Assembly (NCBI RefSeq): GCF_030013205.1
Contig: NZ_CP122648.1
Length of the DNA stretch: 64,000 bases
Origin: Escherichia coli
Lineage (GTDB): Bacteria; Pseudomonadota; Gammaproteobacteria; Enterobacterales; Enterobacteriaceae
Strand: one strand, 5' to 3'
Of the stretch, positions 1 through 23,807 are shown piece by piece; the first letter of the stretch is position 1, and every line of letters begins with the position of its first letter. A program made the translations under genes and the position numbers. The notes under the pieces are model-generated. The model did no database searches, was not told where the DNA came from, and saw only the letters and a program-made list of their open reading frames with translations.

Positions 1-63
1 AGTTCCGGCCAGCAGGTTATAAATTTTTACAGTACGTGATTGTTCACTCATTCTGAATGCCAT
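1..63 (-). CDS. tfa: Tail fibre assembly protein Tfa, N-terminal 21 codons only (gene runs off window start)
   Basis: Reverse complement of 1-63 translates [21 protein letters not shown], matching lambda-type Tfa N-terminus; ATG overlaps stf stop (TAATG). Confidence 0.7.
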   Translation of the reverse strand, partial: MAFRMSEQSRTVKIYNLLAGT

Positions 64-1724
64 TATGCAAGCCTCACAATATAATTAAATGCGATGTTTT
101 TAACGGTGTTTTCCGCGTTACCAGCAGCGTTAACGGTGATGGTGTGTCCATGTGAACCAATCGCAACAGAGTGCGTATGAGCGCCAATACCAACAGTGTG
201 TGCATGTGCCCCAGCACTTGTAGCGGTACCTGATACTGAGTGGGTATGTGCGCCAGAAGAAGGCACAGTTCCATTCCCCACCACCGTGCCACTTGATGCA
301 CCATCAAGCCAGTCGAAATTCATACCTCCACTGTTTGGTCTCCTTAATGGAACGGTATGTGTATGTGCGCCAGCACTATTTGCAGTACCAGATACATTGT
401 GGGTATGTGCACCAGTGTTATTCGTTGATTTAGTACCGTAATCAAACGACGATGTGGTTTTCGTACCCAAATCCGTACTGGATGCGCTGGCACTGTGGGT
501 GTGCGATTTAATGCCATCCTGTTCCTGAGACAATACGGCCCGACCACTGGCGGGTTTGCCCTTGATTGTCCAGCCGCGCATATCTGGAATAACACCAGAA
601 GGATAGGCAATAGCCAGTTTCGGATATGCTGCCTTATCAAACGTCTGCCCCTGCATGATTGCATAACCTGCAGGTGGCGTATCTGATGGCCACGGCAGCG
701 GAACACCTGGCGGAAACGCTTCAATATTTGCCGAGCCGTCAAATTTTACGCCGTTAATTGTCCTTGCCGTTTTCAGCTTTGTTGCTGTAGCAGCATTGCC
801 GGATAGTTCGCCAGAAAGACCACCGCTGAATGTCTGTTTCGCCGCCCATGTCTGAGCTTCGTCGATAATTGGCACACGTCTTGTCGTAATCGTGCGGCTT
901 CCCGGATTTCCTGAAATGCGAACCATAAAAAAGCGGTAATTCGCTTTACTTGCAGTGCTGCGCCATACATGCATTGAGCGCCCCGTACCGAAATCATCAC
1001 TCGGACCAACTGCGATGTTTATCAGGTTGCCATCAATGACGCCCCAGTCCATACCGTCGGGAATATTGGTCATGTTATCAAGCCGAACGGTTATCAGACT
1101 GCCCGGCACAAAATCGTAGGTCTGCCAGTCCAGGCTGGTGAGTTTTGCCACTGCGCCACCGATCCCCATATTCAGGGGCAACGAAAAGGAGTTATACACT
1201 TCTCGCCATTCGGTCCATGTGCTCCCGGCGTAGACGCGCTCAAAAGTGCGCCCCTGTGTGGTTTCTGATTTCCCTGTGGTTGTGTAACGCTGCCAGACAG
1301 ATACACCATCAAAACGCCTGATTACTTCCAGTATCCCAAGCAATGTCGCCCCAGCAGCGTCCAGCATCGGACCGTTTGTCGCCTTTCCTGTAACACTGTA
1401 AATACCGGGGTCGGTTAGAACATTCAAATCACCTTCGTAATAACGGCTCTCTGACTGATGACCGACTCTTAACCACGGTTCCCACTGCGGATTTGATGCA
1501 TCCCAGCTTGCCGCAAGGCAGCGAACGTACATATTCCCACGACGAGTGGTATAACGTTGCGTTCTTCCATAATTCCCGCCTTCGAGGATCTCAAGCGTCC
1601 CCTGAGCAAAGCCGCCTTCCTCTGGATAATTGCGTTCATATGAAGCTATAGCCGAGCTACTGTTACGCCATAAACCAAGATGCTCAGCGGCTCCAAGCGT
1701 ATTCAGGTCTATAGTCGTACTCAA
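63..1724 (-). CDS. Side tail fibre protein, lambda Stf-like C-terminal region
   Basis: 553-aa ORF; C-terminal half has [52 protein letters not shown], His-rich GAHTH/GAHAH boxes and ends NYIVRLA; followed by tfa. Confidence 0.8.
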
Positions 1725-2000
1725 AGGGCGGGTAGTTCAAGAAGCTGTTCCGGAGCGTTTGTTGATGATCCCGATCTGCATAAAAATATTCTTATTTGCT
1801 ATCCGTATGGTAACTATGAATATGACAATATTATCTATGTTGAAAAGAAAACTAATGCATTGGGCGTTGTTGTGACGTATGCACAGACTGCACGAGACGA
1901 TGCTGAATAAGATACTACAGAGATAGTCCACTTTTTTGTTTATTTGTCGGGATAAAAACAAATTACCCCGACTCACCATGTATTAATCTTCCGCTTTAAG

Positions 2001-2384
2001 TTAGTCTTGTAGCTGCGCTGTCCTGCTATGCAGCAAAGCGGCGTACTTTAATGCGTCCTGTGCTTTCTGGAATTTAAGTGCATAGTCAGTGGCGATTTTT
2101 TCCAGTTCAGCGATTCGGTTGTCTTTGGTTTCCAGCCAATCAAGTAGCGCCAATACTTCAGGATCCCCGACATCCAACACTGTTACGCGTGATTTTTCAT
2201 AATGTTCGTCGGCAAGAGTTCGACCAATTTTGAAATCTCCATCATCACCATAACCGGAGCAGCCATAAACAACCTGTGCTCCAGATATTCGCTGAATTGA
2301 CATTTCTTCGCCGCAAATAGGGCATTTTGGTACTGGTGCAGGTGAATAACGTTCACGTAATGCCTGATAGTTGATTTTGCTCAT
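2001..2384 (-). CDS. Hypothetical protein, CPxCG zinc-ribbon-like motif plus predicted C-terminal coiled coil
   Basis: 127-aa ORF with ATG start, same strand as stf; no recognisable family. Confidence 0.4.
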   Translation of the reverse strand: MSKINYQALRERYSPAPVPKCPICGEEMSIQRISGAQVVYGCSGYGDDGDFKIGRTLADEHYEKSRVTVLDVGDPEVLALLDWLETKDNRIAELEKIATDYALKFQKAQDALKYAALLHSRTAQLQD

Positions 2385-2447
2385 TAAGTCGCTCTTCTTG
2401 TTTATGTTCTGAGATGGAGATCAGGGCGAACTCGCCCTGACGTTGTG

Positions 2448-2876
2448 TTATTCAGGAAATAACGCCCTGATATTTCCGGCCATCTGACTGGTTATCTGTG
2501 CGGTTGGTACTGGCTGTGACAGGGGGCGTTCTGTCCTGGTTTGTGTCACTGATAACGCCTCATCGTCAGCCCATGCAGCCAGTCGGTAAGCCTCTGCCGG
2601 ATTCATTTTCAGAAGTGCCAGCCCGGCCAGAAAAGCCACGCGTTGGCCGCTTTTGCGGGCTTCCGGTGTAAGGCTGTCCAGCCAGGCGCATGCTTCGCTT
2701 TCGTTCTTGACGGCCGCAGGCTTCAGATAGAAACTTATCTGAGTAAGTCTGAATGTGTTCAGTTGCTGGATGCACTGGCTGAAAATCCCGATGAACGGCT
2801 GGCTGTCGAAATCCTTCTGTCGACCGGGGCGCGATGGGGCGAGGTAGCGGTACTGGAGCAGCGCCGTGTTCTTCAT
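2448..2876 (-). CDS. Hypothetical ORF, possibly an orphan 3' gene fragment; 5' part is antisense to integrase fragment
   Basis: 142-aa ORF; only the part below ~2700 lies outside the integrase fragment; no convincing RBS for internal starts. Confidence 0.2.
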   Translation of the reverse strand: MKNTALLQYRYLAPSRPGRQKDFDSQPFIGIFSQCIQQLNTFRLTQISFYLKPAAVKNESEACAWLDSLTPEARKSGQRVAFLAGLALLKMNPAEAYRLAAWADDEALSVTQTRTERPLSQPVPTAQITSQMAGNIRALFPE

Positions 2877-3221
2877 TGTCGAATCACTTTTTCAAAAACG
2901 AAGAACAGCAAAAACCGTACCGTTCCTATTTCTGAAAGCCTGTTTGAAAAGATCAAAAAACGGGGCGGGAAACTGGTGTTTCCGACGCTGGATTATCCAT
3001 TGGTTCGCGATGTCATCAAAACGGTCGCATCTGATGTTCCTGACGGCCAGGCTGTTCATGCGCTGCGCCACACCTTCGCCAGTCATTTCATGATGAACGG
3101 CGGCAATATTCTGACGCTCCAGAAAATTCTGGGGCACGCAAAGATTCAGACAACGATGATTTATGCCCATCTTGCGCCGGATTACTTGCAGGATGCGGTG
3201 AGATTTAATCCAATAGCTTGA
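2730..3221 (+). pseudogene. Tyrosine recombinase (P2 Int family), C-terminal catalytic domain only; N-terminal half absent
   Basis: Motifs LSTGARWGE, HALRHTFASHFM, LGHAKIQTTMIYAHL resemble P2 integrase C-terminal half; frames upstream of ~2700 show no integrase-like sequence. Confidence 0.65.
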
Positions 3222-3231
3222 AGGTAGGAAA

Positions 3232-3615
3232 ATGAAAGATATTGAACATTCAGGGGAAATGGAAAAGAAAAAACGGGAGTTTATTAAAAAACTGGAATCG
3301 ATAACGCCAAGAGAATTCTTCCGTTTTTTAAATGAAAAAAACGTCACTGTGGTTTGCCTTGGGTGCGGACTGAAAGATACCCAGATAACTGCCACTACAG
3401 GTAAGTTAAATCTCCAACAACTCCTGGATGGTGAAAAAGGGGAAGAGTTTATGACGTACTTCAGGCTTGAACCAGGTCACCCAGGTGATAGTGATGCGAA
3501 TTATTACTACAAATCTTTTTGTGAGAACTGCGGTTATATAACTATGCATGCAGTGACTCCGGTATTGAACTGGTTGGGATCGCAAAAAAACCAGGAAGGG
3601 TCAGGTGATGAATGA
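3232..3615 (+). CDS. Hypothetical protein with two CxxC pairs (zinc-ribbon-like), low-GC cargo gene
   Basis: 127-aa ORF, AGGTAGGA RBS 5-12 nt upstream of ATG, 10 nt after integrase stop; CLGC and CENC motifs. Confidence 0.55.
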   Translation: MKDIEHSGEMEKKKREFIKKLESITPREFFRFLNEKNVTVVCLGCGLKDTQITATTGKLNLQQLLDGEKGEEFMTYFRLEPGHPGDSDANYYYKSFCENCGYITMHAVTPVLNWLGSQKNQEGSGDE

Positions 3616-3907
3616 GTATACTTATATCACGGGTTTTTCCATTCCGTATCCAGGAGGAATTCAGGTGAGCAATCGCAGAAGTCAGGCAAGTCGTGATGAG
3701 TTCGCTCTTGATAGCCGTGTTGCACGAATGGAGTCTGATATCTCATACATCAAGAGAGATATTGAAGAGCTGAAGAGCGATCTCAAGGATGTGAGAGGCG
3801 ATATTGATAAGATACGCACAACAGATTTCAGGCTCATGTTTGGTGCGTTGATTACTACAGCCTTGGGGTTAGCTGGCTTAATGGCGAGAGGTTTTCACTG
3901 GATTTAA
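3605..3907 (+). CDS. Hypothetical small membrane protein: coiled coil plus C-terminal transmembrane anchor
   Basis: 99-100-aa ORF (GTG 3605 or ATG 3608) overlapping upstream stop (ATGAATGA); AGGAAGG RBS; hydrophobic C-terminus FGALITTALGLAGLMARGF. Confidence 0.55.
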   Translation: MMNEYTYITGFSIPYPGGIQVSNRRSQASRDEFALDSRVARMESDISYIKRDIEELKSDLKDVRGDIDKIRTTDFRLMFGALITTALGLAGLMARGFHWI

Positions 3908-4015
3908 GATCCACAAAGTGACCACATCTCTGTTATTTGTTGTGGTTGGCTGTGTTTTTGTGTGTCTGTAAGTCTTTGATAATTATCTAACTTATTGATT
4001 TTTGTTTGTGTTTAT

Positions 4016-4040
4016 GGCCGCTCTGCGGCCTTTTTTCTTT
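4016..4040 (+). terminator. Rho-independent terminator-like hairpin upstream of btuC
   Basis: GGCCGC-TCTG-CGGCC stem-loop followed by TTTTTTCTTTT. Confidence 0.45.
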
Positions 4041-4098
4041 TCACTGTCGAAGAGTCACCGTAAAATCAACGCCATGACACTTCAGCAGAACGGATACC

Positions 4099-5079
4099 AT
4101 GCTGACACTTGCCCGCCAACAACAGCGACAAAATATTCGCTGGTTATTATGCCTGTCAGTTTTGATGCTGCTGGCGCTTCTCTTAAGCCTTTGCGCCGGT
4201 GAACAATGGATCTCGCCAGGTGACTGGTTTTCTCCTCGAGGCGAACTGTTCGTCTGGCAGATTCGCCTGCCACGTACGCTGGCTGTATTGCTGGTTGGTG
4301 CGGCGTTGGCTATATCCGGCGCTGTAATGCAGGCGTTATTTGAAAATCCTCTGGCAGAACCTGGACTACTTGGCGTCTCTAATGGCGCAGGCGTGGGGCT
4401 TATCGCCGCGGTATTGCTTGGGCAAGGGCAACTCCCCAACTGGGCGCTGGGGCTGTGTGCGATTGCTGGCGCGCTTATCATCACTTTAATACTCTTACGT
4501 TTCGCCCGTCGTCATCTTTCGACCAGTCGGTTATTGCTGGCTGGCGTTGCATTAGGGATTATCTGTAGCGCACTAATGACGTGGGCTATCTACTTTTCCA
4601 CCTCTGTTGATTTACGTCAGCTGATGTACTGGATGATGGGCGGTTTTGGCGGCGTAGACTGGCGGCAAAGCTGGCTGATGCTGGCATTGATCCCCGTGTT
4701 GTTGTGGATCTGTTGTCAGTCCAGACCGATGAATATGTTAGCACTTGGCGAGATCTCGGCGCGGCAACTGGGTTTACCCCTGTGGTTCTGGCGCAATGTG
4801 CTGGTGGCAGCGACCGGCTGGATGGTTGGCGTCAGTGTGGCGTTGGCGGGTGCTATCGGCTTTATTGGTCTGGTGATCCCACATATTCTCCGGTTATGTG
4901 GTTTGACCGATCATCGCGTATTACTTCCCGGCTGCGCGCTGGCAGGGGCGAGCGCATTGCTGCTGGCCGATGTTGTAGCGCGCCTGGCATTAGCTGCTGC
5001 AGAGCTGCCTATTGGCGTGGTCACCGCAACGTTGGGTGCGCCGGTGTTTATCTGGTTATTGTTAAAAGCAGGACGTTAG
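4099..5079 (+). CDS. btuC: Vitamin B12 ABC transporter permease
   Basis: 326-aa ORF matching K-12 BtuC; btuCED order. Confidence 0.95.
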
Positions 5080-5141
5080 CCGCAAAAAGACGGTCTATGA
5101 TTAAAAGCTAAGATTTTTACTGACCACACCCAGGAGAAACG

Positions 5142-5693
5142 ATGCAAGATTCCATTCTGACGACCGTAGTGAAAGATATCGACGGTGAAGTGACCACGCT
5201 GGAGAAGTACGCCGGTAATGTGCTGTTGATTGTCAATGTCGCCTCAAAGTGTGGCTTAACGCCGCAATATGAGCAGTTGGAGAATATTCAGAAAGCCTGG
5301 GCCGATCGTGGTTTTGTGGTGCTGGGATTCCCGTGCAACCAGTTTCTGGAGCAAGAACCGGGCAGCGATGAAGAGATTAAAACTTACTGCACCACTACAT
5401 GGGGGGTGACGTTCCCGATGTTCAGTAAGATTGAAGTTAATGGTGAAGGACGCCATCCGCTGTATCAAAAATTGATTGCCGCAGCGCCGACCGCAGTCGC
5501 GCCGGAAGAGAGCGGATTCTATGCCCGTATGGTCAGCAAAGGTCGTGCACCGCTGTACCCTGATGATATCTTATGGAATTTTGAGAAATTTTTAGTTGGC
5601 AGGGACGGATTGGTCATCCAGCGTTTTTCCCCGGATATGACGCCGGAAGATCCCATTGTGATGGAAAGCATTAAACTGGCGTTGGCAAAATAA
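5142..5693 (+). CDS. btuE: Thioredoxin/glutathione peroxidase
   Basis: 183-aa ORF, glutathione peroxidase family, between btuC and btuD. Confidence 0.95.
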
Positions 5694-6442
5694 TGTCTAT
5701 TGTGATGCAGTTACAGGATGTTGCGGAGTCTACCCGCCTGGGGCCGCTTTCTGGCGAGGTTCGGGCTGGGGAGATCCTGCACCTGGTGGGGCCGAATGGC
5801 GCGGGTAAGAGTACCTTACTGGCGCGAATGGCCGGAATGACCAGCGGTAAGGGAAGCATTCAGTTCGCGGGGCAACCACTGGAAGCATGGTCCGCAACAA
5901 AACTCGCGCTGCATCGCGCCTATCTTTCACAACAACAGACGCCACCGTTTGCAATGCCGGTCTGGCACTACCTGACACTGCATCAGCACGATAAAACGCG
6001 TACCGAACTACTGAATGATGTCGCAGGGGCGCTGGCTCTTGATGACAAACTCGGACGTAGCACCAAGCAACTTTCCGGCGGCGAATGGCAACGCGTACGT
6101 CTTGCTGCGGTGGTGCTGCAAATCACACCACAAGCCAATCCCGCAGGCCAATTGCTGCTTCTTGATGAGCCGATGAACAGTCTTGATGTTGCGCAACAAA
6201 GTGCATTAGACAAAATTCTGAGCGCGCTGTGTCAGCAAGGACTGGCGATTGTGATGAGCAGTCACGATCTCAACCATACATTGCGTCATGCGCATCGGGC
6301 GTGGTTGCTAAAAGGTGGAAAAATGCTGGCCAGTGGACGCAGGGAAGAGGTGCTCACGCCGCCAAATCTGGCGCAGGCCTATGGGATGAATTTTCGCCGT
6401 CTGGATATCGAAGGTCACAGAATGCTGATTTCGACCATCTGA
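5693..6442 (+). CDS. btuD: Vitamin B12 ABC transporter ATP-binding protein
   Basis: 249-aa ORF with Walker [10 protein letters not shown]; start overlaps btuE stop. Confidence 0.95.
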
Positions 6443-6519
6443 TTTCATTAGTATCTTGAAAATCGGGTAATTACGACGCTAAATTAATGCAAGAATAAAA
6501 AACAGAGGAACCGTACGGA

Positions 6520-6984
6520 ATGCGTTTCTGCCTTATTTTGATCACAGCACTGTTTCTGGCCGGGTGTAGCCACCATAAAGCACCGCCGCCAAATGCCAGA
6601 CTTTCTGATTCGATTACCGTTATTGCCGGTTTGAACGACCAGCTACAGAGCTGGCATGGCACGCCGTATCGTTATGGTGGCATGACGCGGCGCGGTGTGG
6701 ACTGTTCGGGGTTTGTGGTTGTGACGATGCGCGATCGTTTCGATTTGCAGCTGCCCCGAGAAACTAAAGAACAAGCCTCTATCGGCACGCAAATTGATAA
6801 AGACGAGTTGCTGCCAGGTGACCTGGTCTTTTTCAAAACGGGCTCCGGACAAAATGGTTTGCATGTAGGTATTTACGATACCAACAACCAATTTATCCAC
6901 GCCTCTACCAGCAAGGGAGTGATGCGTTCCTCACTTGATAATGTCTATTGGCAGAAAAATTTCTGGCAGGCGAGACGAATCTAG
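6520..6984 (+). CDS. nlpC: NlpC/P60 family lipoprotein (putative peptidoglycan endopeptidase)
   Basis: 154-aa ORF, lipobox LAGC, NlpC/P60 Cys motif. Confidence 0.9.
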   Translation: MRFCLILITALFLAGCSHHKAPPPNARLSDSITVIAGLNDQLQSWHGTPYRYGGMTRRGVDCSGFVVVTMRDRFDLQLPRETKEQASIGTQIDKDELLPGDLVFFKTGSGQNGLHVGIYDTNNQFIHASTSKGVMRSSLDNVYWQKNFWQARRI

Positions 6985-7230
6985 TATGTCGAAAAATTGA
7001 CGGCGATGATACATCGCCGTCAATTTACTCCAGAATACGGTAGTATTTTGCAGACAAAAATTCCGTAAATGGATTATTCGTTTATAATCAGGATAATCTA
7101 AAAAAAGGACCCCTGAAAAAGTGGTTAACATGGAACAAATGAAAGTTACTCCTTCTGTAATTGTTATGTCTTATGGCCTCATCCCTTTTAGCCGGATACT
7201 GAAAAACATCCTTCGAGAGGGACGGTTACC

Positions 7231-7944
7231 ATGAAGATTTTTTTGGAGAATCTTTATCATTCTGATTGCTATTTCCTGCCGATAAGAGATAACCAGCAAG
7301 ACCTTGTCGGCGTTGAGTTAATTACCCATTTCTCCAGTGAAGATGGTACGGTTCGTATCCCGACGAGTCGGGTTATAGCGCAACTTACCGAGGAGCAACA
7401 TTGGCAATTATTTTCAGAGCAGTTGGAATTACTAAAATCATGCCAACACTTTTTTATTCAACATAAACTCTTTGCCTGGCTTAATTTAACGCCACAAGTG
7501 GCTACTTTATTATTAGACAGGGATAATTACGCAGGCGAACTATTAAAATATCCGTTTATTGAACTGTTGATTAATGAGAATTACCCGCATCTCGATGAAG
7601 GAAAAGATAATCGCGATCTTTTTTCCTTATCGCAAATGTATCCCCTTGTGTTAGGTAATTTGGGCGCAGGCAATAGCACAATGAAAGCGGTTTTTGATGG
7701 TCTTTTCACCCGCGTCATGCTGGATAAAAGTTTTATTCAGCAACAAATCACGCATCGCTCCTTCGAACCGTTTATTCGTGCGATCCAGGCGCAAATTTCC
7801 CCATGTTGCAATTGCATCATCGCGGGGGGCATTGATACGCCAGAAATAATGGCACAGATTACCCCCTTTGATTTCCATGCTCTCCAGGGATGCCTGTGGC
7901 CTGCCGTTCCCATAAATCAGATAACGACGTTGGTTCAGCGATAA
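7231..7944 (+). CDS. ydiV: Anti-FlhD4C2 factor, degenerate EAL-like protein
   Basis: 237-aa ORF matching K-12 YdiV; synteny. Confidence 0.9.
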   Translation: MKIFLENLYHSDCYFLPIRDNQQDLVGVELITHFSSEDGTVRIPTSRVIAQLTEEQHWQLFSEQLELLKSCQHFFIQHKLFAWLNLTPQVATLLLDRDNYAGELLKYPFIELLINENYPHLDEGKDNRDLFSLSQMYPLVLGNLGAGNSTMKAVFDGLFTRVMLDKSFIQQQITHRSFEPFIRAIQAQISPCCNCIIAGGIDTPEIMAQITPFDFHALQGCLWPAVPINQITTLVQR

Positions 7945-7967: not shown

Positions 7968-9443
<1,476 letters not shown>

Positions 9444-9446
9444 AGG

Positions 9447-9638
9447 CTACTTGGTCAACAGCAGCTTGCCAGCCTGAGTTTTACGGAGCAGATATTCTTG
9501 CCCGTCATGATCGATAATCAGTTTGCCATCCGGACCTAACAGTGTCTGGCTGGTAATTCGCCGAATGGGCTGTGGGGAAGCGGTCTTGTGATTGGCATCC
9601 GTTTCAGGCGTGAGTTTTCTGCTATCCGTATAACGCAT
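9447..9638 (-). CDS. ydiE: HemP-like small protein
   Basis: 63-aa protein from internal ATG of 72-aa ORF (MRYTDSRK...), matches K-12 YdiE. Confidence 0.8.
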
Positions 9639-9769
9639 AAAGATTAATAATAATTGATATAACAATGATTCTTATTATCAATATTATGGCGGGCCAGAGC
9701 AAGCAGTAATTTGTTGAGAAGACAACAAGTTGCGCAGAAATGCCCATTCCGTCAGGAATGGGCACGCAT

Positions 9770-10816
9770 TCAGAAACGGGTATCAACTGCAGAGGCGAGT
9801 TTTTCGACCAGGCGTTCGGTATCTTCCCAGCCCAGACACGGGTCGGTAATCGATTGACCGTAAGTGAGCGGCTGACCGCCGGCGATTTTTTGCGTTCCTT
9901 CGCGCAGGAAACTTTCCGCCATAATTCCAGCAATCGCCGTAGAGCCATTGCGGATTTGCTGACAAATATCCTCACAAACTTCTAACTGGCGACGGTGCTG
10001 CTTCTGGCAGTTACCGTGGCTGAAATCCACCACCAGATGTTCAGGTAAATCAAACTCGTGCAGCGTATCGCAGGCTGCGGCGATATCATCGGCATGATAA
10101 TTCGGTTTTTTGCCGCCACGCATAATAATGTGGCCATACGGGTTGCCGCTGGTCTGATAGATGGTCATCTGACCATTTTTGTCTGGCGAGAGGAACATAT
10201 GGCTGGCGCGGGCTGCGCGGATAGCATCCACGGCAATCCGCGTGTTGCCATCGGTACCATTTTTAAAACCTACCGGACAGGAGAGTGCCGAAGCCATTTC
10301 ACGGTGGATCTGACTTTCGGTAGTACGTGCGCCAATCGCACCCCAACTGATTAAATCAGCAATAAACTGACCGGTCACCATATCGAGGAACTCAGTCGCG
10401 GTAGGGACGCCCAGCTCATTTACCTGTAAAAGTAATTTGCGCGCCAGCTCCAGACCGTGATTTACCCGATAGCTGCCGTTTAAATCTGGATCGGAGATTA
10501 GCCCTTTCCAGCCGACAACAGTTCGTGGTTTTTCAAAATAGGTGCGCATTACGATTTCCAGCCGTGACTGGTACTGGTTGCGCAGCGACTGCAGACGGGT
10601 GGCGTACTCCATTGCAGCGGTGAGATCGTGGATCGAGCAGGGGCCAATAATGACCAACAGTCGCTTATCTTCACCATTCAGTATTTTTTCAATTCTGCGG
10701 CGGGAGTCGGTGACATGGGTGGCGACGCCAGGCGTTACGGGATACCGTAGCGCGAGTTCGGCGGGCGTTACCAGGCTCTCAATACGCGCAGTACGGAGTT
10801 CGTCAGTTCTGTTCAT
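9770..10816 (-). CDS. aroH: DAHP synthase, Trp-sensitive
   Basis: 348-aa ORF matching K-12 AroH. Confidence 0.95.
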   Translation of the reverse strand: MNRTDELRTARIESLVTPAELALRYPVTPGVATHVTDSRRRIEKILNGEDKRLLVIIGPCSIHDLTAAMEYATRLQSLRNQYQSRLEIVMRTYFEKPRTVVGWKGLISDPDLNGSYRVNHGLELARKLLLQVNELGVPTATEFLDMVTGQFIADLISWGAIGARTTESQIHREMASALSCPVGFKNGTDGNTRIAVDAIRAARASHMFLSPDKNGQMTIYQTSGNPYGHIIMRGGKKPNYHADDIAAACDTLHEFDLPEHLVVDFSHGNCQKQHRRQLEVCEDICQQIRNGSTAIAGIMAESFLREGTQKIAGGQPLTYGQSITDPCLGWEDTERLVEKLASAVDTRF

Positions 10817-10961
10817 TACAAGTCTCAGAAATTTGTTGCTTCTACGGCAGGACTACCGGGAAGTGATGCGCATCACGATAAACCAATCGCAGCTGATTTC
10901 AAGTGCGAGGTGTGTCACACCTCGCCGGGTGGTTAGCATGATAACAAAAAAACAAGCTAAT

Positions 10962-10979
10962 GCACTAGTTCTCTAGTAC
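10962..10979. promoter_or_regulatory. TrpR operator-like palindrome in aroH upstream region
   Basis: GCACTAGTTCTCTAGTAC, near-perfect inverted repeat of TrpR-box type upstream of aroH. Confidence 0.5.
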
Positions 10980-11806
10980 ATTCGACGGCTAAGGCCCATG
11001 ATATCGAGGATCTTGGTGGCAATCTCTTCTACCGAATAATTGGTACTGTTAATCCACGGGATCTGATTTTTACGGTACAAGGCTTCTACTTCCGCGACTT
11101 CCATCCTGCACTGACGAAGCGAGGCATAGCGACTGTTCTCCCGACGTTCTTCGCGAATCGCCGCCAGACGTTCCGGGTCGATAGTCAGGCCGAACAATTT
11201 ATGCTGAAGCGGTTTGAGCGACGCGGGTAGCACAAGATTATCCATATCGTCGGCAATAAAGGGGTAGTTTGCCGCGCGGATACCAAATTGCATTGCCAGA
11301 TACAGACTGGTGGGGGTTTTACCACAGCGAGAAACGCCGAGCAGGATCACCTGAGCCTGGTCCAGATTGCGTAACGAAATGCCATCATCGTGGGCGAGGG
11401 TGTAATCAATCGCAGCAATGCGCGCATCATATTTATTGAGATTATTAGGGTTAAGGCCATGGGTACGATGAGCAATCGGCGTTGGATCCAGTTTCATCTC
11501 TTGTTGTAGCGGGGCAACCAGCGCCTGAACGATATCCTGGCAAAAGCCTTCACTTTGCAAGATGATGGCGCGAATCTCCGGCAACACGATGGAGTAGAAG
11601 ACCAGCGGGCGCACACCTGTCTGGTGATAAATTGCGTCAATCTGATCCTTCACTGCCCGTGCACGGCTCTCATTTTCGACAAACGGCAGCGTAATGCTGC
11701 TGATAGTGACGGGAAATTGTGACATTACTGCGTGTCCTAATACCTCCGCAGTTATTGCCGTACCATCAGAAATATAAAAAACGTGGCGATCAACAGCATT
11801 ATCCAT
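10973..11806 (-). CDS. ppsR: PEP synthetase regulatory protein (bifunctional kinase/phosphotransferase)
   Basis: 277-aa ORF matching K-12 PpsR/YdiA; divergent from ppsA. Confidence 0.93.
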
Positions 11807-12138
11807 TTTGTTCTTCCCGTGATGCAGACATAATTCTATGAAAGCATAAATTAAAAACGCACAGAAGCGTAGAACGTTATGTCTGGTTTATAAAATGAAC
11901 CTTCAATTTTATTTTTTATGAAAACAGTATTTCATTTTTACGGTTTCGTTTATACCGATGGTTTATGTGGAAATTGTCGAAGAGAGCAGATTTGCGCAAC
12001 GCTGGGATCAGTCTTAAAAAGTAAAAAAATATATTTGCTTGAACGATTCACCGTTTTTTTCATCCGGTTAAATATGCAAAGATAAATGCGCAGAAATGTG
12101 TTTCTCAAACCGTTCATTTATCACAAAAGGATTGTTCG

Positions 12139-14517
12139 ATGTCCAACAATGGCTCGTCACCGCTGGTGCTTTGGTATAACCAACTCGGCATGAATGATGT
12201 AGACAGGGTTGGGGGCAAAAATGCCTCCCTGGGTGAAATGATTACTAACCTTTCCGGAATGGGTGTTTCCGTTCCGAATGGTTTCGCCACAACCGCCGAC
12301 GCGTTTAACCAGTTTCTGGACCAAAGCGGCGTAAACCAGCGCATTTATGAACTGCTGGATAAAACGGATATTGACGATGTTACCCAGCTTGCGAAAGCGG
12401 GCGCGCAAATCCGCCAGTGGATTATCGACACTCCCTTCCAGCCTGAGCTGGAAAACGCCATCCGCGAAGCCTATGCACAGCTTTCCGCCGATGACGAAAA
12501 CGCCTCGTTTGCGGTGCGTTCCTCCGCTACTGCAGAAGATATGCCGGACGCTTCTTTTGCCGGTCAGCAGGAAACTTTCCTCAACGTTCAGGGTTTTGAC
12601 GCCGTTCTCGTGGCAGTGAAACATGTATTTGCTTCTCTGTTTAACGATCGCGCCATCTCTTATCGTATGCACCAGGGTTACGATCACCGTGGCGTGGCGC
12701 TCTCCGCCGGTGTTCAGCGGATGGTGCGCTCCGACCTCGCATCTTCTGGCGTGATGTTCTCCATTGATACCGAATCCGGCTTTGACCAGGTGGTGTTTAT
12801 CACTTCCGCATGGGGCCTTGGTGAAATGGTCGTGCAGGGCGCGGTTAACCCGGATGAGTTTTACGTGCATAAACCGACACTGGCGGCGAATCGCCCGGCT
12901 ATCGTGCGCCGCACCATGGGGTCGAAAAAAATCCGCATGGTTTACGCGCCGACCCAGGAGCACGGCAAGCAGGTTAAAATCGAAGACGTACCGCAGGAAC
13001 AGCGTGACATCTTCTCGCTGACCAACGAAGAAGTGCAGGAACTGGCAAAACAGGCCGTACAAATTGAGAAACACTACGGTCGCCCAATGGATATTGAGTG
13101 GGCGAAAGATGGCCACACCGGCAAACTGTTCATTGTGCAGGCGCGTCCGGAAACCGTGCGCTCACGCGGTCAGGTCATGGAGCGTTATACGCTGCATTCA
13201 CAGGGTAAGATTATCGCCGAAGGCCGTGCTATCGGTCATCGCATCGGCGCGGGTCCGGTGAAAGTCATCCATGACATCAGCGAAATGAACCGCATCGAAC
13301 CTGGCGACGTGCTGGTTACTGACATGACCGACCCGGACTGGGAACCGATCATGAAGAAAGCATCTGCCATCGTCACCAACCGTGGGGGGCGTACCTGTCA
13401 CGCGGCGATCATCGCTCGTGAACTCGGCATTCCGGCGGTAGTGGGCTGTGGTGATGCAACAGAACGGATGAAAGACGGTGAGAACGTCACTGTTTCTTGT
13501 GCCGAAGGTGATACCGGTTATGTCTATGCGGAGTTGCTGGAATTTAGCGTGAAAAGCTCCAGCGTAGAAACGATGCCGGATCTGCCGTTGAAAGTAATGA
13601 TGAACGTCGGTAACCCGGACCGTGCTTTCGACTTCGCCTGCCTGCCGAACGAAGGCGTGGGCCTTGCACGTCTGGAATTTATCATCAACCGTATGATTGG
13701 CGTCCACCCACGCGCACTGCTTGAGTTTGACGATCAGGAACCGCAGTTGCAAAACGAAATCCGCGAGATGATGAAAGGTTTTGATTCTCCGCGTGAATTT
13801 TACGTTGGTCGTCTGACTGAAGGGATCGCGACGCTGGGTGCCGCGTTTTATCCGAAGCGCGTCATTGTCCGTCTCTCTGATTTTAAATCGAACGAATATG
13901 CCAACCTGGTCGGTGGTGAGCGTTACGAGCCAGATGAAGAGAACCCGATGCTCGGCTTCCGTGGCGCGGGCCGCTATGTTTCCGACAGCTTCCGCGACTG
14001 CTTCGCGCTGGAGTGTGAAGCAGTGAAACGTGTGCGCAACGATATGGGGCTGACCAACGTTGAGATCATGATCCCGTTCGTGCGTACCGTAGATCAGGCG
14101 AAAGCGGTGGTTGACGAATTGGCGCGTCAGGGGCTGAAACGTGGTGAGAACGGGCTGAAAATCATCATGATGTGTGAAATTCCGTCCAACGCCTTGCTGG
14201 CAGAGCAGTTCCTCGAATATTTCGACGGCTTCTCAATTGGCTCAAACGACATGACACAGCTGGCGCTCGGTCTGGACCGTGACTCTGGCGTGGTGTCTGA
14301 ACTGTTCGATGAGCGCAACGATGCGGTGAAAGCACTGCTGTCGATGGCGATTCGTGCCGCGAAGAAACAGGGCAAATATGTCGGGATTTGCGGTCAGGGT
14401 CCATCCGACCACGAAGACTTTGCTGCATGGTTGATGGAAGAGGGGATCGATAGCCTGTCTCTGAACCCGGACACCGTGGTGCAAACCTGGTTAAGCCTAG
14501 CTGAACTGAAGAAATAA
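12139..14517 (+). CDS. ppsA: Phosphoenolpyruvate synthase
   Basis: 792-aa ORF matching K-12 PpsA. Confidence 0.97.
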
Positions 14518-14525
14518 AATAAATA

Positions 14526-14548
14526 CCCGGCGGCGTTTTGTCGCCGGG
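14526..14548. terminator. Hairpin between convergent ppsA and fadK (possible bidirectional terminator)
   Basis: CCCGGCG-GCGTTTTGT-CGCCGGG followed by TTTAT. Confidence 0.5.
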
Positions 14549-14573
14549 TTTATGTGATCCCCGAAGATGAAAC

Positions 14574-16274
14574 TTATTCAATCTCTTCACAGACATCCTG
14601 AGTTAATCGCAGCATAATATCTTTCCTTAACAAAAACTTTTGTATTTTACCTGAGGCAGTGCGAGGTAGTTTTTCGATTACCACGATATGTTCAGGATAT
14701 TTATATTTCGCGACCCGTTTACGGCTAAAAAAAGTCACCACGTCTTCCAGCGATAATGAATGATGCGGGGCTTTCAGCACGACATAAGCGCATGAGCGTT
14801 CACCTAAACGTTCATCGGGCATCGCAACCACACAGGCATCGTGAATTTTAGGATGCTGCAATAAAATATCTTCTACTTCACGGCTGCTAATATTTTCGCC
14901 ACCGCGGACAATAATATCTTTCTTGCGCCCGGTTATTTTTATATAGCCAGCTTCATCCATGCGGCAGAGATCGCCGCTGTAATACCAGCCTTCTTCATCC
15001 AGCGCACGGGCGGTTAATTCAGGTTCATCAAAATACCCCATAAACACATTGGGGCCACGCGAGGCTTCTTCACCTTCGCAACCTGGCGGTAAGGTCTTGC
15101 GTGCGTCATCGACCACTTTAATCTCAACACCTGCGGCAGCGTAACCATCGGTGTGCATAAAGCGCGACAAAGGATCGTCGAGATTCACCACTGCGTGCGG
15201 CGAACTTTCTGTGGAACCATAAACACTTAATAATTTAATGCCGCGCTGCTGGCATTCACGCGCCACTTTTTTGGGGATTGTGGTCCCGCCGCAAAGAAAG
15301 AAGCGCAGCGCTGAAAGGTCAGCGGGTTGTTTCTCCAGTAAATTCAAAAGATCATAGACAAACGGCGTTGCGCCGAGCATACAGGTGCAACGCTGCTGCT
15401 CAAGCAACGCGAGACACGCATCAGGAGTGAAAATATCTAACAACACGCTGCGAGCGCCAATTAAGAATGGTGCCGTTACGCCATGCAGAAAGCCCGTTGC
15501 ATGACCAAGTGGCGCAGGCATCATAAAGACATCCTGCCAGGTCAGATTCAACCGCGCGCAATAAGCCCGCTCACTGGCGAGAATATTGTTATGCGTTAGC
15601 ATCACGCCCTTTGGCAGACCCTCGGTTCCGGAGGTAAACAGCACCGCGGCTAATTCATCGCCGTGGACCGTTATCGCCGTGGTCAGAGGAGTATTGTCGG
15701 CGATAATCTGACTTAATGAGAGGGAAGAGGTGGCGGGAGCCAGTTTGTCCACGCCGACAATTTGTTGTAGTTGTAGAAGCTGATTTTGCAGCGGCAGGAT
15801 TAAATCTACCGGACGCGTTTGTTTAAACAACGTCGGTGCAAAGAACATTTTTGCCTGACACTTATTGAGTACCCATACCAGTTCTGCTTCCCGCCAGGAA
15901 GGCAACAGCGGTACGGAAACCGCACCGATTTTCAGGCAGGCAAGATAGATAACGGTAAATTCACACCAGCCAGGCAGTTGAAATGCGATGCGATCGCCTG
16001 ATTCAATACCCTTCGTCAACATCCAGTTTGCCAGACAGCTCGCGGCGTGATCGAGCGCGCTATAGGTGTACGATGCTCCATGATTATCGACCACGGCAAT
16101 TTTGTCTGGCATCGCACGAGCGGTCTGCTGCCAGTAATCGGCCAGCGAAGCATCGCCCCATAGCCCTTGCTGACGATACGCCGCACGACGTTGTTCGTTA
16201 AACGTTAATGTCACTTTCATTTTGAACTCTCGAGACAGAACATCAGGCCCGAGATGCGGGCCTGTGGGATGCAT
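14574..16274 (-). CDS. fadK: Short-chain acyl-CoA synthetase (anaerobic)
   Basis: 566-aa ORF, AMP-binding family; alternative start at 16220 (MKVTLTF) would give 548 aa. Confidence 0.9.
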   Translation of the reverse strand: MHPTGPHLGPDVLSREFKMKVTLTFNEQRRAAYRQQGLWGDASLADYWQQTARAMPDKIAVVDNHGASYTYSALDHAASCLANWMLTKGIESGDRIAFQLPGWCEFTVIYLACLKIGAVSVPLLPSWREAELVWVLNKCQAKMFFAPTLFKQTRPVDLILPLQNQLLQLQQIVGVDKLAPATSSLSLSQIIADNTPLTTAITVHGDELAAVLFTSGTEGLPKGVMLTHNNILASERAYCARLNLTWQDVFMMPAPLGHATGFLHGVTAPFLIGARSVLLDIFTPDACLALLEQQRCTCMLGATPFVYDLLNLLEKQPADLSALRFFLCGGTTIPKKVARECQQRGIKLLSVYGSTESSPHAVVNLDDPLSRFMHTDGYAAAGVEIKVVDDARKTLPPGCEGEEASRGPNVFMGYFDEPELTARALDEEGWYYSGDLCRMDEAGYIKITGRKKDIIVRGGENISSREVEDILLQHPKIHDACVVAMPDERLGERSCAYVVLKAPHHSLSLEDVVTFFSRKRVAKYKYPEHIVVIEKLPRTASGKIQKFLLRKDIMLRLTQDVCEEIE

Positions 16275-16276
16275 GA

Positions 16277-16570
16277 TTAGCCGTAGCGAAAATCAATACC
16301 GAAGGTGCCTGCGGGATATTGCCACTGTTCGAGAATAGTGTTGCCGCACAGCACCCGACAGGTGCCGCATTCCAGACAACCGGCGGGATCGAAATGAATG
16401 TTTCCTGCGTCATCCTGCTTATAAAGTCCGGCAGGGCAGGCTTTCATTAATTTACGGAATTCATTGATATCGGGATTTGCCGCCAAAATGATATGCGGGT
16501 GGCCCTCATCAACATGGAATTTATTGACGCCTAATTTGATGTCGACGTTAACCGTAGCGTTCTGGCTCAT
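16277..16570 (-). CDS. ydiT: Ferredoxin-like protein (FixX-like)
   Basis: 97-aa ORF with Cys cluster; overlaps ydiS stop. Confidence 0.9.
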   Translation of the reverse strand: MSQNATVNVDIKLGVNKFHVDEGHPHIILAANPDINEFRKLMKACPAGLYKQDDAGNIHFDPAGCLECGTCRVLCGNTILEQWQYPAGTFGIDFRYG

Positions 16571-17856
16571 AGCGCGGTTGCTCCCTTAATGCCATCTTTC
16601 AGCAAGTTGATCAGCCCAATTTTCTTCGCGTGTCCCATGATCATTTTGCGTACCGGCTGGTTTGGTTTGCCGTCAATGGTGAACATCTCGTTCATGATGT
16701 CGGCTACCATTCGTGGATATTGGCTAAACAGGCGCGGGTTTTCCATGAGCGCCGGGATCTTGCGAAAATGCTGCATATCACGCATGACGCAGCTTTGTTC
16801 CAGCTCACGTTTGTATTGCGCAAGACTGCTGGCGGAGAAATCCGCGCGTTCTTTGGCGGCGATCACCGTTGTGGCGGCAGCCTGAGCCGATGCAATGGCT
16901 AAATCCATGCCGCGAACTGTAAAACCCAAATTCAGGCAGAAGCCTGCGGCGTCACCAACGATCATCACGCCATCGTTAACCAGCTGCGGCACCATTGCCA
17001 GACCGCCTTCCGGCACCATATGCGCGGAATATTCAAGCAGTTTGCCGCCGCTAATCAGCGGGCGAATGGCGGGGTGTTGTTTAAAATCTTCCAGCATTTG
17101 CGGCACGCTTTTTTGCGCATGGGCGATATCACCCAATCCACAAACCAGCCCCAACGATATGGAATCCTTATTGGTATAGAGAAATCCGCCGCCCATCAGG
17201 CCGTCAGAAGGGGAACCGGCAAACAGCCAGGCGGCACCTTCCTCGCCCGTAATATTAAAGCGATCGTTGATCTGTTCTGGTGTGAGGCCAATAACCTCTT
17301 TAACACCAACAGCGTAATGATGCGGATCGGAAGCGGGAACCATTCCCAGCGAGCGGCCAAGCATCGAGTTAACGCCATCAGCCAGAATCACCACATTCGC
17401 TTCGAGAATATCATCCCCGGCCTGGACGCCAGTGACCTTGTTTCCTTCACGAACCAGCGCATCGACGCGAACGCCCGGGATAAACTGTGCGCCCGCCTGC
17501 TCGGCTTGTTCCATCAACCACGGGTCCAGACGATTACGCAATACGGTATAAGATGCGTGTTGCGGAACATCTGGTTGCTCGCGGTGAAAATCGAGGGTAA
17601 CGGCGCTCTCTTCGGTTAAGAAAGAGATTTTCTCGCGTGTGACCTTGCGTTCTACCGGCGCTGATGCTGCAAAGCCTGGAATAATCGCTTCAAGTGTGTG
17701 GGCATAAAGACGCCCGCCGGTCATGTTTTTACATCCGGCACTGTCGCCGCGTTCTATCACCAGGACATCCAGCCCGGCTCGCGCCATGACCTGTGCGGCA
17801 ACGCTACCGGCAACGCCCGCACCGACCACAATGGCATCAAATTTGTCATCCGACAT
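16567..17856 (-). CDS. ydiS: ETF-quinone oxidoreductase-like flavoprotein (FixC-like)
   Basis: 429-aa ORF with FAD-binding GxGxxG N-terminus. Confidence 0.92.
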   Translation of the reverse strand: MSDDKFDAIVVGAGVAGSVAAQVMARAGLDVLVIERGDSAGCKNMTGGRLYAHTLEAIIPGFAASAPVERKVTREKISFLTEESAVTLDFHREQPDVPQHASYTVLRNRLDPWLMEQAEQAGAQFIPGVRVDALVREGNKVTGVQAGDDILEANVVILADGVNSMLGRSLGMVPASDPHHYAVGVKEVIGLTPEQINDRFNITGEEGAAWLFAGSPSDGLMGGGFLYTNKDSISLGLVCGLGDIAHAQKSVPQMLEDFKQHPAIRPLISGGKLLEYSAHMVPEGGLAMVPQLVNDGVMIVGDAAGFCLNLGFTVRGMDLAIASAQAAATTVIAAKERADFSASSLAQYKRELEQSCVMRDMQHFRKIPALMENPRLFSQYPRMVADIMNEMFTIDGKPNQPVRKMIMGHAKKIGLINLLKDGIKGATAL

Positions 17857-17911
17857 GCGTTATGCTCCCTTCCCGCTGCGTTTACAGCGGGAGATGTGGT
17901 TGAAAGGGGAA

Positions 17912-18850
17912 TTAGCTGCTCAACTGGCTAATCAGGGCAGGGACGACTTTGTAGATATCGCCCACCAGACCGTAGTCGGCATAGTTGAAGATTGGCGCAT
18001 TTTTATCTTTATTGATGGCGACAATCACTTTTGCGCCGTTGCCGCCAACCATATGCTGGATCTGCCCGGAAATCCCCAGCGTCAGGTAGAGATCGGATTT
18101 CAGCAACACGCCGGAGACACCGATATAACGTTCACGCTCCATCCAGTTCTCGCCTTCGGCAATTGGACGTGAACAGCCGACTTCAGCATTCAGCACCGCC
18201 GCCAGTTCGTGGACCATTTTCAGGTCATCCTGCGCCGCCAGACCACGACCGACGCCAACCACACGTTTTGCTTTGCTCAGGTCCACGCTGCTTGCGGCTT
18301 TCGCACGGCGTTCGCGACAGAGAATTTCATGACGCGGAGCAACATAAGGTACCGTTTCTGTCGGGCACTGATGAGCGGTATCACTGGTGCACGGTTCCTG
18401 AACACCGGGTGCAAGGGTAATGATCGCCAGCGGGCTGTTGATCTTTTCCTGTGCGAACGCTAACCCGCCATACATCCGGTGTTCGGCGCAAATGTGACCA
18501 TCGACAATATCCACCGCAGTGGCATCGTTCACCAGCGCCGCATTCAGTTGCACACTTAACCGTGCTGCCAGAGCTTTACCACGTTTCGTCGCGGCCAGCA
18601 GCAACATAGAAGGGTGTTTATCTTTCAGCAGGGCAGCAATGCTTTCGGCGTAATTTTCAGTACGTTGCAGCGCATCATTTTGCTCAAGAACATAAATACA
18701 TTTTGGACCATAAGGCATAACTGCCTGCGCCTGGTCGGTATTTTGTACAATGGCATACACCTGTTGGCCCCATTGCTGCGCGCCGCCAAACAGTTCAGCA
18801 TAACGTTCAGGATTATCGCTAAAGACCCAGACGCTGTTTAATTGACTCAT
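17912..18850 (-). CDS. ydiR: Electron transfer flavoprotein alpha subunit (FixB-like)
   Basis: 312-aa ORF matching K-12 YdiR. Confidence 0.92.
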   Translation of the reverse strand: MSQLNSVWVFSDNPERYAELFGGAQQWGQQVYAIVQNTDQAQAVMPYGPKCIYVLEQNDALQRTENYAESIAALLKDKHPSMLLLAATKRGKALAARLSVQLNAALVNDATAVDIVDGHICAEHRMYGGLAFAQEKINSPLAIITLAPGVQEPCTSDTAHQCPTETVPYVAPRHEILCRERRAKAASSVDLSKAKRVVGVGRGLAAQDDLKMVHELAAVLNAEVGCSRPIAEGENWMERERYIGVSGVLLKSDLYLTLGISGQIQHMVGGNGAKVIVAINKDKNAPIFNYADYGLVGDIYKVVPALISQLSS

Positions 18851-18869
18851 CGTTTCTTCTCCGTAGGCT

Positions 18870-19634
18870 TCAGTTCAGGGCTTTCTTCAGATGTTCCGCC
18901 AGCTCGGCAATGGCCTCCGGCGAATCGTTATCGAGAATGATGTGCTTACGTTCTGTTTGCGGCGGTACGCGAATGCCGGTCAGTTCAGCAAGCGGCGCGC
19001 TCTGGCTCCAGCCAATGTCACTTGCCTGCCACTGATTTACCGGTTTTTTACCCGCGCCGAGAATGGCTTTCATCGAAGGAATGCGTGGCATGTTAATATC
19101 GGAGGTGACGCAGAGCACGGCTGGAACAGAGAGCTCAATAACTTCAACATCATCTTCAAGCGTGCGTTCAATCACCAGTGTATTGCCCTGACGCTGAATA
19201 GCACTCACTGCATTAATCACCGGAAGTTGCAGAATTTCTCCGACCAGCAAGCCAACCTGCTGGGCATAAAGGTCGCCGGAACCTTCACCAAAGATCAGTA
19301 AATCGAAGCCGATTTTTTCAACTGCTGCCGCCAGCGCCTTTGCGGTATCGAGAGGCAGTGCATGTTCAAGTTGCGCATCCTGCACCAAATACAGGCTATG
19401 CGGCCCGCGGGATAGCACGTCTTTACGCACTTTCGAGTTCTGCAACAATGAGCCGCCAATGGTCAGCGCGGCTATCTCATCGTCATCTGTTGCAATCTGG
19501 CTTGCAGCTTCAATGGCATTGAGATCGAACTGGCTGATTTTGGCGTCGGCATTGTCGAAATTCAGGGTATATTCTGGAGTGACAACAATGTCCTGTTCTT
19601 CAGGCACCAGCTTAAAGCAGGTTATTATTTTCAT
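18870..19634 (-). CDS. ydiQ: Electron transfer flavoprotein beta subunit (FixA-like)
   Basis: 254-aa protein from internal ATG (MKIITCF) of 287-aa ORF. Confidence 0.9.
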   Translation of the reverse strand: MKIITCFKLVPEEQDIVVTPEYTLNFDNADAKISQFDLNAIEAASQIATDDDEIAALTIGGSLLQNSKVRKDVLSRGPHSLYLVQDAQLEHALPLDTAKALAAAVEKIGFDLLIFGEGSGDLYAQQVGLLVGEILQLPVINAVSAIQRQGNTLVIERTLEDDVEVIELSVPAVLCVTSDINMPRIPSMKAILGAGKKPVNQWQASDIGWSQSAPLAELTGIRVPPQTERKHIILDNDSPEAIAELAEHLKKALN

Positions 19635-19948
19635 GATTTCTCCTGTGAGTCGCATACGGAACCATCTCCGATGGAAGGTAAAAATGGCCTGAAAATAGTG
19701 TGCGATAGCAGGGCGGGGGGTTCGACGGAGCAAGCTGTTTTCCTTGCCAACAATCTTGCAAAAAAATGCGATCGCTAAAACAAAAGTGCAATTTGCGGCA
19801 ATATAGTTATTCCATGACCGTACAATCTTGCATTCAGTGTAAATAATCTTGTTTAGCTCTCGCTAAACGCGGTTGTATAACCGCAATACACGCCGTATTT
19901 TATCCGGCATATATTGTTTTTGCTTGCTCATGGAATAGGGAGGTTGTC

Positions 19949-20860
19949 ATGTATCAACGCTGTTTTGATAACGCCAGCGAAACGCTGTTTGTTGCCGGTA
20001 AAACGCCACGGCTTTCACGTTTTGCATTTAGCGATGATCCAAAATGGGAGTCCGGACATCACGTTCATGACAATGAAACCGAGTTGATTTACGTCAAGAA
20101 AGGGGTAGCAAGGTTTACCATCGATTCTTCGTTATATGTCGCGCACGCCGATGACATTGTGGTGATAGAACGTGGCAGGCTGCATGCGGTGGCCTCTGAC
20201 GTTAACGATCCGGCAACGACGTGTACCTGTGCGCTGTACGGCTTTCAGTTTCAGGGGGCTGAGGAAAATCAGCTACTGCAACCGCATTCTTGCCCGGTAA
20301 TTGCCGCAGGGCAGGGAAAAGAAGTCATTAAAACCTTATTTAATGAGCTAAGTGTGATTTTGCCGCAAAGTAAAAATAGCCAAACATCTTCGTTATGGGA
20401 CGCCTTTGCCTATACGTTAGCAATTCTTTACTATGAAAACTTTAAAAATGCTTATCGTTCGGAGCAGGGATATATTAAAAAAGATGTTCTGATAAAAGAT
20501 ATTCTTTTCTATCTGAATAATAACTATCGCGAAAAAATCACTTTAGAGCAGTTATCGAAAAAGTTTCGTGCCAGCGTCAGTTATATTTGCCATGAATTTA
20601 CCAAAGAGTATCGTATTTCCCCTATTAACTATGTTATTCAACGGCGTATGACGGAAGCGAAATGGTCACTCACTAATACTGAATTATCACAGGCAGAGAT
20701 CTCCTGGCGTGTGGGTTATGAAAATGTCGATCACTTTGCCAAACTGTTTTTGCGCCATGTCGGCTGTTCGCCCAGCGATTACCGCAGGCAATTTAAAAAC
20801 TGTTTTGCGGAACAAGAAATCTTATCTGAATTTCCTCAACCGGTAAGTCTTGCCGGATAA
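19949..20860 (+). CDS. ydiP: AraC-family transcriptional regulator
   Basis: 303-aa ORF with C-terminal AraC-type HTH. Confidence 0.9.
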   Translation: MYQRCFDNASETLFVAGKTPRLSRFAFSDDPKWESGHHVHDNETELIYVKKGVARFTIDSSLYVAHADDIVVIERGRLHAVASDVNDPATTCTCALYGFQFQGAEENQLLQPHSCPVIAAGQGKEVIKTLFNELSVILPQSKNSQTSSLWDAFAYTLAILYYENFKNAYRSEQGYIKKDVLIKDILFYLNNNYREKITLEQLSKKFRASVSYICHEFTKEYRISPINYVIQRRMTEAKWSLTNTELSQAEISWRVGYENVDHFAKLFLRHVGCSPSDYRRQFKNCFAEQEILSEFPQPVSLAG

Positions 20861-20902
20861 ATCTGGCGGCGCAGTTTGTTAAGAAGCTGCGCCGCCTGCA
20901 GA

Positions 20903-22054: not shown

Positions 22055-22067
22055 CGTGATACTCCTG

Positions 22068-23663: not shown

Positions 23664-23807
23664 TGTTAATTCCTGATTCAGGTGTGATTTTCCCTACGCC
23701 AGATGGAGAATTAGCGCACAGAGACTCACGAAATATTTTTATTAAATACGGTTAAATATATTTTTTTAGTTCGGCGGGGGAGGATATTCCCGCCGAAATA
23801 TTATTGC

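Follow-up and report, generated by a model that had tools for sequence, protein, structure and literature searches.

The open reading frame on the minus strand at positions 63-1724 of the window, a 64,000-nucleotide stretch of Escherichia coli DNA from contig NZ_CP122648.1, raises the question of whether it is a tail-fibre gene in its own right or a piece of a longer one. A preliminary description had read it as a stand-alone stf-tfa cassette starting at 1724, with an atypical N-terminal half joined to a lambda Stf-like C-terminal part. The long frame itself is real, running without interruption through 553 codons. Its best explanation is a different one: positions 63..1735 (minus strand) are almost certainly a 5'-truncated pseudogene, consisting of the last 557 codons of an 885-codon gpH gene from a P88-like prophage and owing its present form to a deletion. 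The deletion and the homologies behind this reading are taken directly from the data. The whole remnant covers codons 329-885 and the stop codon.

Position 1724 does not mark the beginning of a gene. Comparison with the undeleted allele places the TTG at this position at Leu333 of the 885-residue full-length protein, and its choice was mechanical, as it is the first start-type codon after an in-frame TGA at 1737-1739, four codons upstream. The 20 nt preceding the TTG (GCTTCTTGAACTACCCGCCCT) contain neither a Shine-Dalgarno nor a purine-rich motif. A promoter scan of the minus strand upstream of the frame, over 1725-2991, gave no promoter-like site, and the terminator-like matches around the frame in the same scan were unremarkable. 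The start codon and ribosome-binding site expected of a functional gpH gene are missing from the remnant, of which PGAP annotates only 63..716, as 'phage tail protein, incomplete, missing N-terminus'. Lacking a native start, a ribosome-binding site and a nearby promoter-like site, the remnant most likely makes no protein. Against its reading as a pseudogene stand the fully open frame of 553 codons and the intact tfa behind it, and against its silence the possibility that read-through from upstream genes on the same strand yields a little translation, beginning at the TTG or internally. The survival of an open frame does not, however, show expression.

Sister genomes reveal how the fragment arose. 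Window positions 1-1735 are identical (100%) to 20001-21735 of the corresponding locus of isolate F344 (L008), and window positions 1731-2739 are identical (100%) to 34816-35824 of that locus, leaving an exact gap of 13,085 bp with a 5-bp overlap. This overlap, the pentamer GGTAG common to both parental sequences, constitutes deletion junction 1 at window 1731..1735. In F344 the prophage is undeleted and occupies the identical ihfA-btuC site; the Hxs cargo is the same, and an IS66-family element stands at the position corresponding to that in the window-lineage prophage. The 885-residue fibre gene of F344 follows I, J, W and V, and is accompanied by lysis and head genes, terminase, portal and a hypothetical gene, and by ead, stability, ParM and replication genes. 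The 13,085 bp absent from the window took with them the first 328 codons of the fibre, gpI, J, W and V, the genes for tail completion, lysis and the head, as well as terminase and portal, and one further gene lost its start.

The undeleted arrangement is found in other strains as well. In strain 1190 (L002), positions 12001-13735 match window 1-1735 at 100% and lie inside an 885-residue 'tail-collar fiber' gene, which belongs to an intact prophage at serS and stands directly after gpI, gpJ, gpW and gpV. The canonical order of V-W-J-I, fibre and tfa is shared by strain 1190, E-1246 (L004) and F344. In the window genome V-W-J-I do not stand directly upstream of the fibre; an ead-like gene and a gene fragment are located there instead. 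It was thus rightly noted that no baseplate or tail genes precede the frame in this genome. The stand-alone cassette itself gives way to a P2-type gpH gene of which the 13,085-bp deletion left only the 3' part, codons 329-885.

A second junction, with a 4-bp overlap, is located at window 2736..2739. Window 1-2739 equals 15001-17739 of ETEC1701 (L003), and window 2736-4200 equals ETEC1701 22347-23811; relative to ETEC1701 the window lacks the 4,611 bp in between, which hold the 5' end portion of the integrase gene and the genes for ParM and the replication endonuclease. Homology to ETEC1701, E-1246 and F344 stops at window 2739. The distribution of junction 1 was determined with a 500-bp probe across the junction in complete E. 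coli genomes. The junction is entire in 14 of 5,426 genomes, in every case at 100% identity, and all 14 are swine ETEC or O139:H1; the other genomes listed for the probe were matched on one side only. Seven complete E. coli genomes from swine, K_EC180 and several ETEC strains among them, contain window 1-4100 at 100% identity, and in that search four places per genome record matched the query.

These comparisons suggest a stepwise history. An intact P88-like prophage with a complete 885-codon mosaic fibre gene would first have been present between ihfA and btuC. A single illegitimate-recombination event between two GGTAG pentamers, for which the microhomology at junction 1 reads as the characteristic signature, would have removed 13,085 bp in a swine E. 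coli lineage, and further deletions together with insertion sequences would then have shrunk the prophage to about 17 kb. Both flanks of the junction are still 100% identical to the undeleted phage, which indicates that the deletion is recent, and the open frame persists because of this recency.

The upstream part of the frame, residues 1-341 (window 702..1724, minus strand; full-length residues 333-673), corresponds by gpH homology to the middle shaft or knob region of a P2-type gpH fibre. It is 87-93% identical to gpH of many Peduovirus phages and 63% identical to gpH of L-413C, so that colinear homology with gpH of characterised P2-family phages spans 63-93% for these residues; residues 1-673 of the full-length 885-residue protein are colinear with L-413C gpH at 72% identity. 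The undeleted allele carries the attachment domain PF12571 (Phage_tail_fib) at residues 1-151 (E = 1e-57), in addition to PF03406, PF07484 and PF03335. Pfam finds no PF12571 in the window frame, residues 1-151 having been removed by the deletion, and of the 794 positions in profile phrog_295 the frame covers only 501-794. What had been taken for an atypical domain of ~300 N-terminal residues is accordingly the middle of a longer fibre (residues 333-673 of 885); the observation that this half does not resemble a tail-attachment domain was right, and it corresponds to the middle region of a P2-type gpH. Close relatives are named 'pyocin knob domain-containing protein' by their source databases. 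Among the nearest protein-search matches, most are marked as partial by their sources and many come from contigs hardly longer than the gene; several relatives carry PF12571.

Frame residues 1-93 are a tandem duplicate of the preceding 93 residues, which are deleted (z = 32.6 vs shuffles), and the deletion breakpoint falls almost exactly at the boundary between the two tandem knob repeats. Such a position could look designed; it is read as coincidence, because unrelated DNA lies across the junction. The AlphaFold2 model of frame residues 1-337, built from a shallow 26-sequence alignment, reached a mean pLDDT of 52, with only residues ~95-175 confident. Foldseek comparison of this low-confidence model with the PDB returned the R1 and R2 pyocin fibres 6CL5 and 6CL6 as top matches, with E-values of 3.7e-7 (6CL6) and 1.4e-6 (6CL5) and TM-scores of ~0.2. 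A sequence search of the same residues against solved structures gave nothing, even at E = 10. The modelled likeness of the shaft part to R1/R2 pyocin fibres is suggestive only.

The downstream part, at window 66..749 (minus strand), equals frame residues 326-553 and full-length residues 658-885 and forms a lambda Stf / T4 gp37-like receptor-binding tip with a collar domain, an HxH needle and a divergent head. Pfam reports for the window frame only PF07484 (Collar, residues 340-387) and the short Phage_fiber repeat PF03335. Seven HxH motifs occur between frame residues 408 and 527, namely KSHTHS, GAHTHN, GAHTHT, GAHTHS, GAHAHT, GAHTHS and GSHGHT. Full-length residues 658-885 align with lambda orf-314 (the Stf C-terminus) at 64% identity over 256 columns (E = 3e-104); to lambda orf-401 the only similarity is a 40-residue repeat. 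The T4 gp37 tip structure 2XGF aligns with residues 653-885 (E = 5.6e-83); the flanks are near-identical, and a divergent central segment falls at query residues ~795-830. This divergent segment would point to a receptor specificity different from that of T4. The features of a lambda Stf / T4 gp37-type tip are all present, with the Collar and HxH motifs, the sequence similarity and an adjacent downstream Tfa, and the lambda Stf-like character of the C-terminal part, with its GAHTH, GAHAH and GSHGH repeats, holds.

The fibre remnant and tfa are joined by a TAATG stop/start overlap at window 61..65 (minus strand, ...GCA TAA TGG...). The part of the preliminary description that placed a lambda-type tfa with this overlap downstream stands; the gene nevertheless lies almost wholly outside the window, with its first 21 codons at 1..63 (minus strand) and the remainder of its 205 residues past the window start. 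The 21 in-window codons match the start of lambda Tfa at 19 of 21 positions. The complete gene, at 19446-20063 of the K_EC180 locus (L001), is annotated intact, is 81% identical to lambda Tfa and contains PF02413 (E = 1.6e-39), while its similarity to gpG of L-413C and P88 is ~47% identity over 63 residues only. NCBIfam contains no family match for either the fibre or tfa. The intact fibre is a mosaic, in which a P2 gpH attachment domain and a shaft with tandem knobs (residues 1-673) are joined to a lambda Stf/T4 gp37-type collar, HxH needle and tip (residues ~658-885), and a lambda-type Tfa chaperone serves it. Mosaics of this kind, with a tip and chaperone of lambda/T4 type on a P2 shaft, are already known. 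Such fibre-gene mosaics have long been described, with tips moving between unrelated phages, according to the works cited as references 71-74 in PMC3945230. Host range set by P2-family fibres was shown for P88 (PMC5285337).

The K_EC180 locus is part of a badly decayed P2-family prophage that sits between ihfA and btuC. By annotation, its left part contains Hok/Gef, ogr, the Hxs cassette and an IS66 element inserted in gpD, and its middle a transposase fragment, a 5'-truncated tape-measure gene, gpU, an acetyltransferase gene and tfa. The right part holds the incomplete tail protein, a gene fragment, the ead/Ea22-like gene, the stability gene and an integrase fragment, and two small genes and then btuC end the locus. 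Within the window, the 3' remnant of a hypothetical phage gene occupies 1736..1910 (plus strand; PGAP 'incomplete, missing N-terminus'), and its full form is found just after portal in the undeleted prophages of E-1246 (19600-20175) and F344 (34420-34995). An ead/Ea22-like early-region gene, also called by PGAP, follows at 2001..2384 (minus strand; PF13935, E = 3.3e-29), then a plasmid-stability/partition family gene at 2448..2762 (minus strand; PF10784, E = 4.5e-23), whose native 5' end was replaced at junction 2, and the 3' fragment of a P2-type tyrosine integrase at 2763..3221 (plus strand; PF00589, E = 8e-21). Full integrases of 310-325 residues are present in ETEC1701 (21900-22832) and E-1246 (27645-28622). 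The right end of the remnant is the attR core at window 4016..4040, one copy of the 25-bp direct repeat GGCCGCTCTGCGGCCTTTTTTCTTT, which occurs in K_EC180 at 7031-7055 (attL) and 24016-24040 (window 4016-4040). The remnant measures ~17 kb, compared with 35.8 kb for phage P88. Its T-U genes converge on the H-G genes as in P88, and its early-region DNA matches Xuanwuvirus P884B11; in gene order and homology the element is a remnant of a P88-like (Xuanwuvirus, Peduoviridae) prophage.

Several further observations concern this prophage and its surroundings. The attachment core looks like the ihfA terminator stem-loop with its T-run, duplicated by integration. The ead/Ea22-like gene is labelled 'missing C-terminus' by PGAP also in E-1246 and F344, and because both of these are undeleted, its truncation predates both deletions. 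A complete HxsD-HxsB-HxsC-HxsA cassette, encoding a His-Xaa-Ser repeat protein with two radical-SAM maturases, lies outside the window as prophage cargo between ogr and gpD (K_EC180 8163-11560) and is also present in ETEC1701 and F344; strain 1190 has an unrelated hypothetical gene at this position. A Hok/Gef-family toxin gene is found beside ogr at the attL end (K_EC180 7319-7459), as in every examined copy for which the sequence retrieved covers that end. Between the integrase fragment and attR, two small overlapping genes occupy window 3232-3615 and 3605-3907, one with CxxC...CxxC motifs and the other with weak coiled-coil family matches and a hydrophobic C-terminus; their sole matches are PHROGs of unknown function. 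The slot looks like a variable cargo position, since E-1246 carries unrelated genes there (28625-29424). A hexapeptide-repeat O-acetyltransferase gene just left of the window (K_EC180 18937-19482) overlaps the 3' end of tfa in convergent orientation; its product resembles a serine or sugar acetyltransferase, scores below all NCBIfam cut-offs and may be a lysogenic-conversion factor. PADLOC returned no matches for the small neighbouring genes or the acetyltransferase. Further along the window, ydiV (7231-7944) is intact with 237 codons and is annotated as frameshifted in K_EC180, which is identical to the window over 1-7828 and out of register from 7829, consistent with a single-base indel; the window therefore derives from a sister strain of K_EC180.

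Two readings would make the frame a working unit. The first takes it as a functional stand-alone stf-tfa cassette, whose unusual N-terminal half would be a new attachment or adaptor domain in an orphan host-range module. The open frame, the intact tfa and the lack of upstream tail genes in the window genome speak for it. Its supposed N-terminus is nevertheless codon 333 of an 885-codon gene and identical to the undeleted copies, the in-frame stop lies four codons upstream with neither a Shine-Dalgarno motif nor a promoter-like site, the junction is confined to the 14 clonal swine genomes, and the closest relatives are mostly partial entries, with several relatives carrying PF12571. This reading is very improbable, and the exact reconstruction of the deletion against F344 refutes it. 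The other would place the frame in an invertible segment of the Gin/Cin/Pin/Min type as its silent, alternative arm, a promoterless 3' part that is joined by inversion to a constant 5' part. Such an arm would look much like this frame, a promoterless and startless fibre 3' part followed by tfa, and in phage P88, the type phage of the genus, a DNA invertase gene accompanied by an alternative fibre tip and tfa does lie between gpU and the fibre genes. The present prophage, however, has the acetyltransferase gene in that slot. The preliminary description had proposed a search for invertase genes or inverted repeats upstream of the window start; annotation shows no invertase gene either in the remnant or over the ~20 kb that lie left of the window, and the right-hand 10 kb of the remnant, from gpD to attR (K_EC180 14000-24200), are free of inverted repeats of at least 18 nt. 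The window contains no second fibre-like sequence or constant 5' fibre part, none of the latter is annotated elsewhere in the remnant, and the junction is a simple deletion relative to F344. With no annotated invertase, no inverted repeats in those 10 kb and no second fibre-like sequence in the window, an invertible fibre-tip cassette was rejected, and its probability is close to nil.

Two other readings accept the truncation and assign the fragment a use. A truncated fibre translated at a low level could be folded by Tfa into a free receptor-binding trimer; by masking the receptor, this trimer could keep out phages whose tips are of the gp37/Stf type, and would then be a domesticated exclusion factor. 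Nothing observed supports this idea, which is hardly credible. It is less far-fetched, though on balance doubtful, that the remnant is inert as a gene and serves as donor DNA from which P2-like, lambdoid and T-even phages could gain the tip and tfa by homologous recombination. The tip and tfa are 64-81% identical to those of lambda, the tip also matches T4 gp37 (E = 5.6e-83), and recombination of lambda with the stf/tfa genes of Rac and Qin, both defective prophages, is on record (PMC3945230), in keeping with the movement of fibre tips between unrelated phages mentioned above. Conversely, nothing specific to the window locus was observed, and other strains carry the same tip and tfa in intact prophages. 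The 'reservoir for host-range recombination' of the preliminary description is, by analogy, generally plausible. A donor role adds to the explanation of the locus as a deletion remnant and does not replace it.

As a deletion remnant, the locus represents ordinary prophage decay, a kind of feature already known, and its significance is small beyond correct annotation. It illustrates that a long open frame beside the edge of a phage remnant can be the product of a deletion and not a gene, and that comparison with sister genomes quickly settles which of the two applies. It is also a clean case of stepwise prophage decay in swine ETEC/O139 E. coli, in which the exact 13,085-bp event is recoverable, and the surviving fragment could in principle donate a lambda/T4-type tip to incoming phages.

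Among known systems, the closest is gpH of the P2 family (P2, L-413C and P88/Xuanwuvirus), with which the undeleted allele shares PF12571, a position after gpV-W-J-I and a position before tfa. The window remnant differs from it in having lost the first 328 codons and all upstream tail genes, and from P2-family gpH/gpG in that its last ~228 residues and its assembly gene are of the lambda/T4 type. Lambda Stf (orf-401/orf-314) with Tfa and the T4 gp37 tip share the Collar domain, the seven HxH motifs, the Tfa-type chaperone and the TAATG overlap, whereas the shaft and attachment parts here are P2-type. The R-type pyocin fibres (PA0620, PALES_06171; 6CL6, 6CL5) resemble the full protein in their tandem knob-like repeats and are the best structural matches for frame residues 1-337, albeit with a poor model and TM ~0.2. 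An R-type pyocin or tailocin locus was ruled out, as the remnant lacks the sheath, tube, gpE and all baseplate genes, and its gpD and tape-measure genes are truncated by annotation. Finally, the stf/tfa genes of Rac and Qin offer a parallel: there too a fibre gene has outlasted the decay of its prophage together with its tfa, and both could take part in recombination with phages that enter the cell (PMC3945230). The window remnant differs from them in deriving from a P2-family and not a lambdoid prophage, and in that its exact deletion can be reconstructed from a sister genome.
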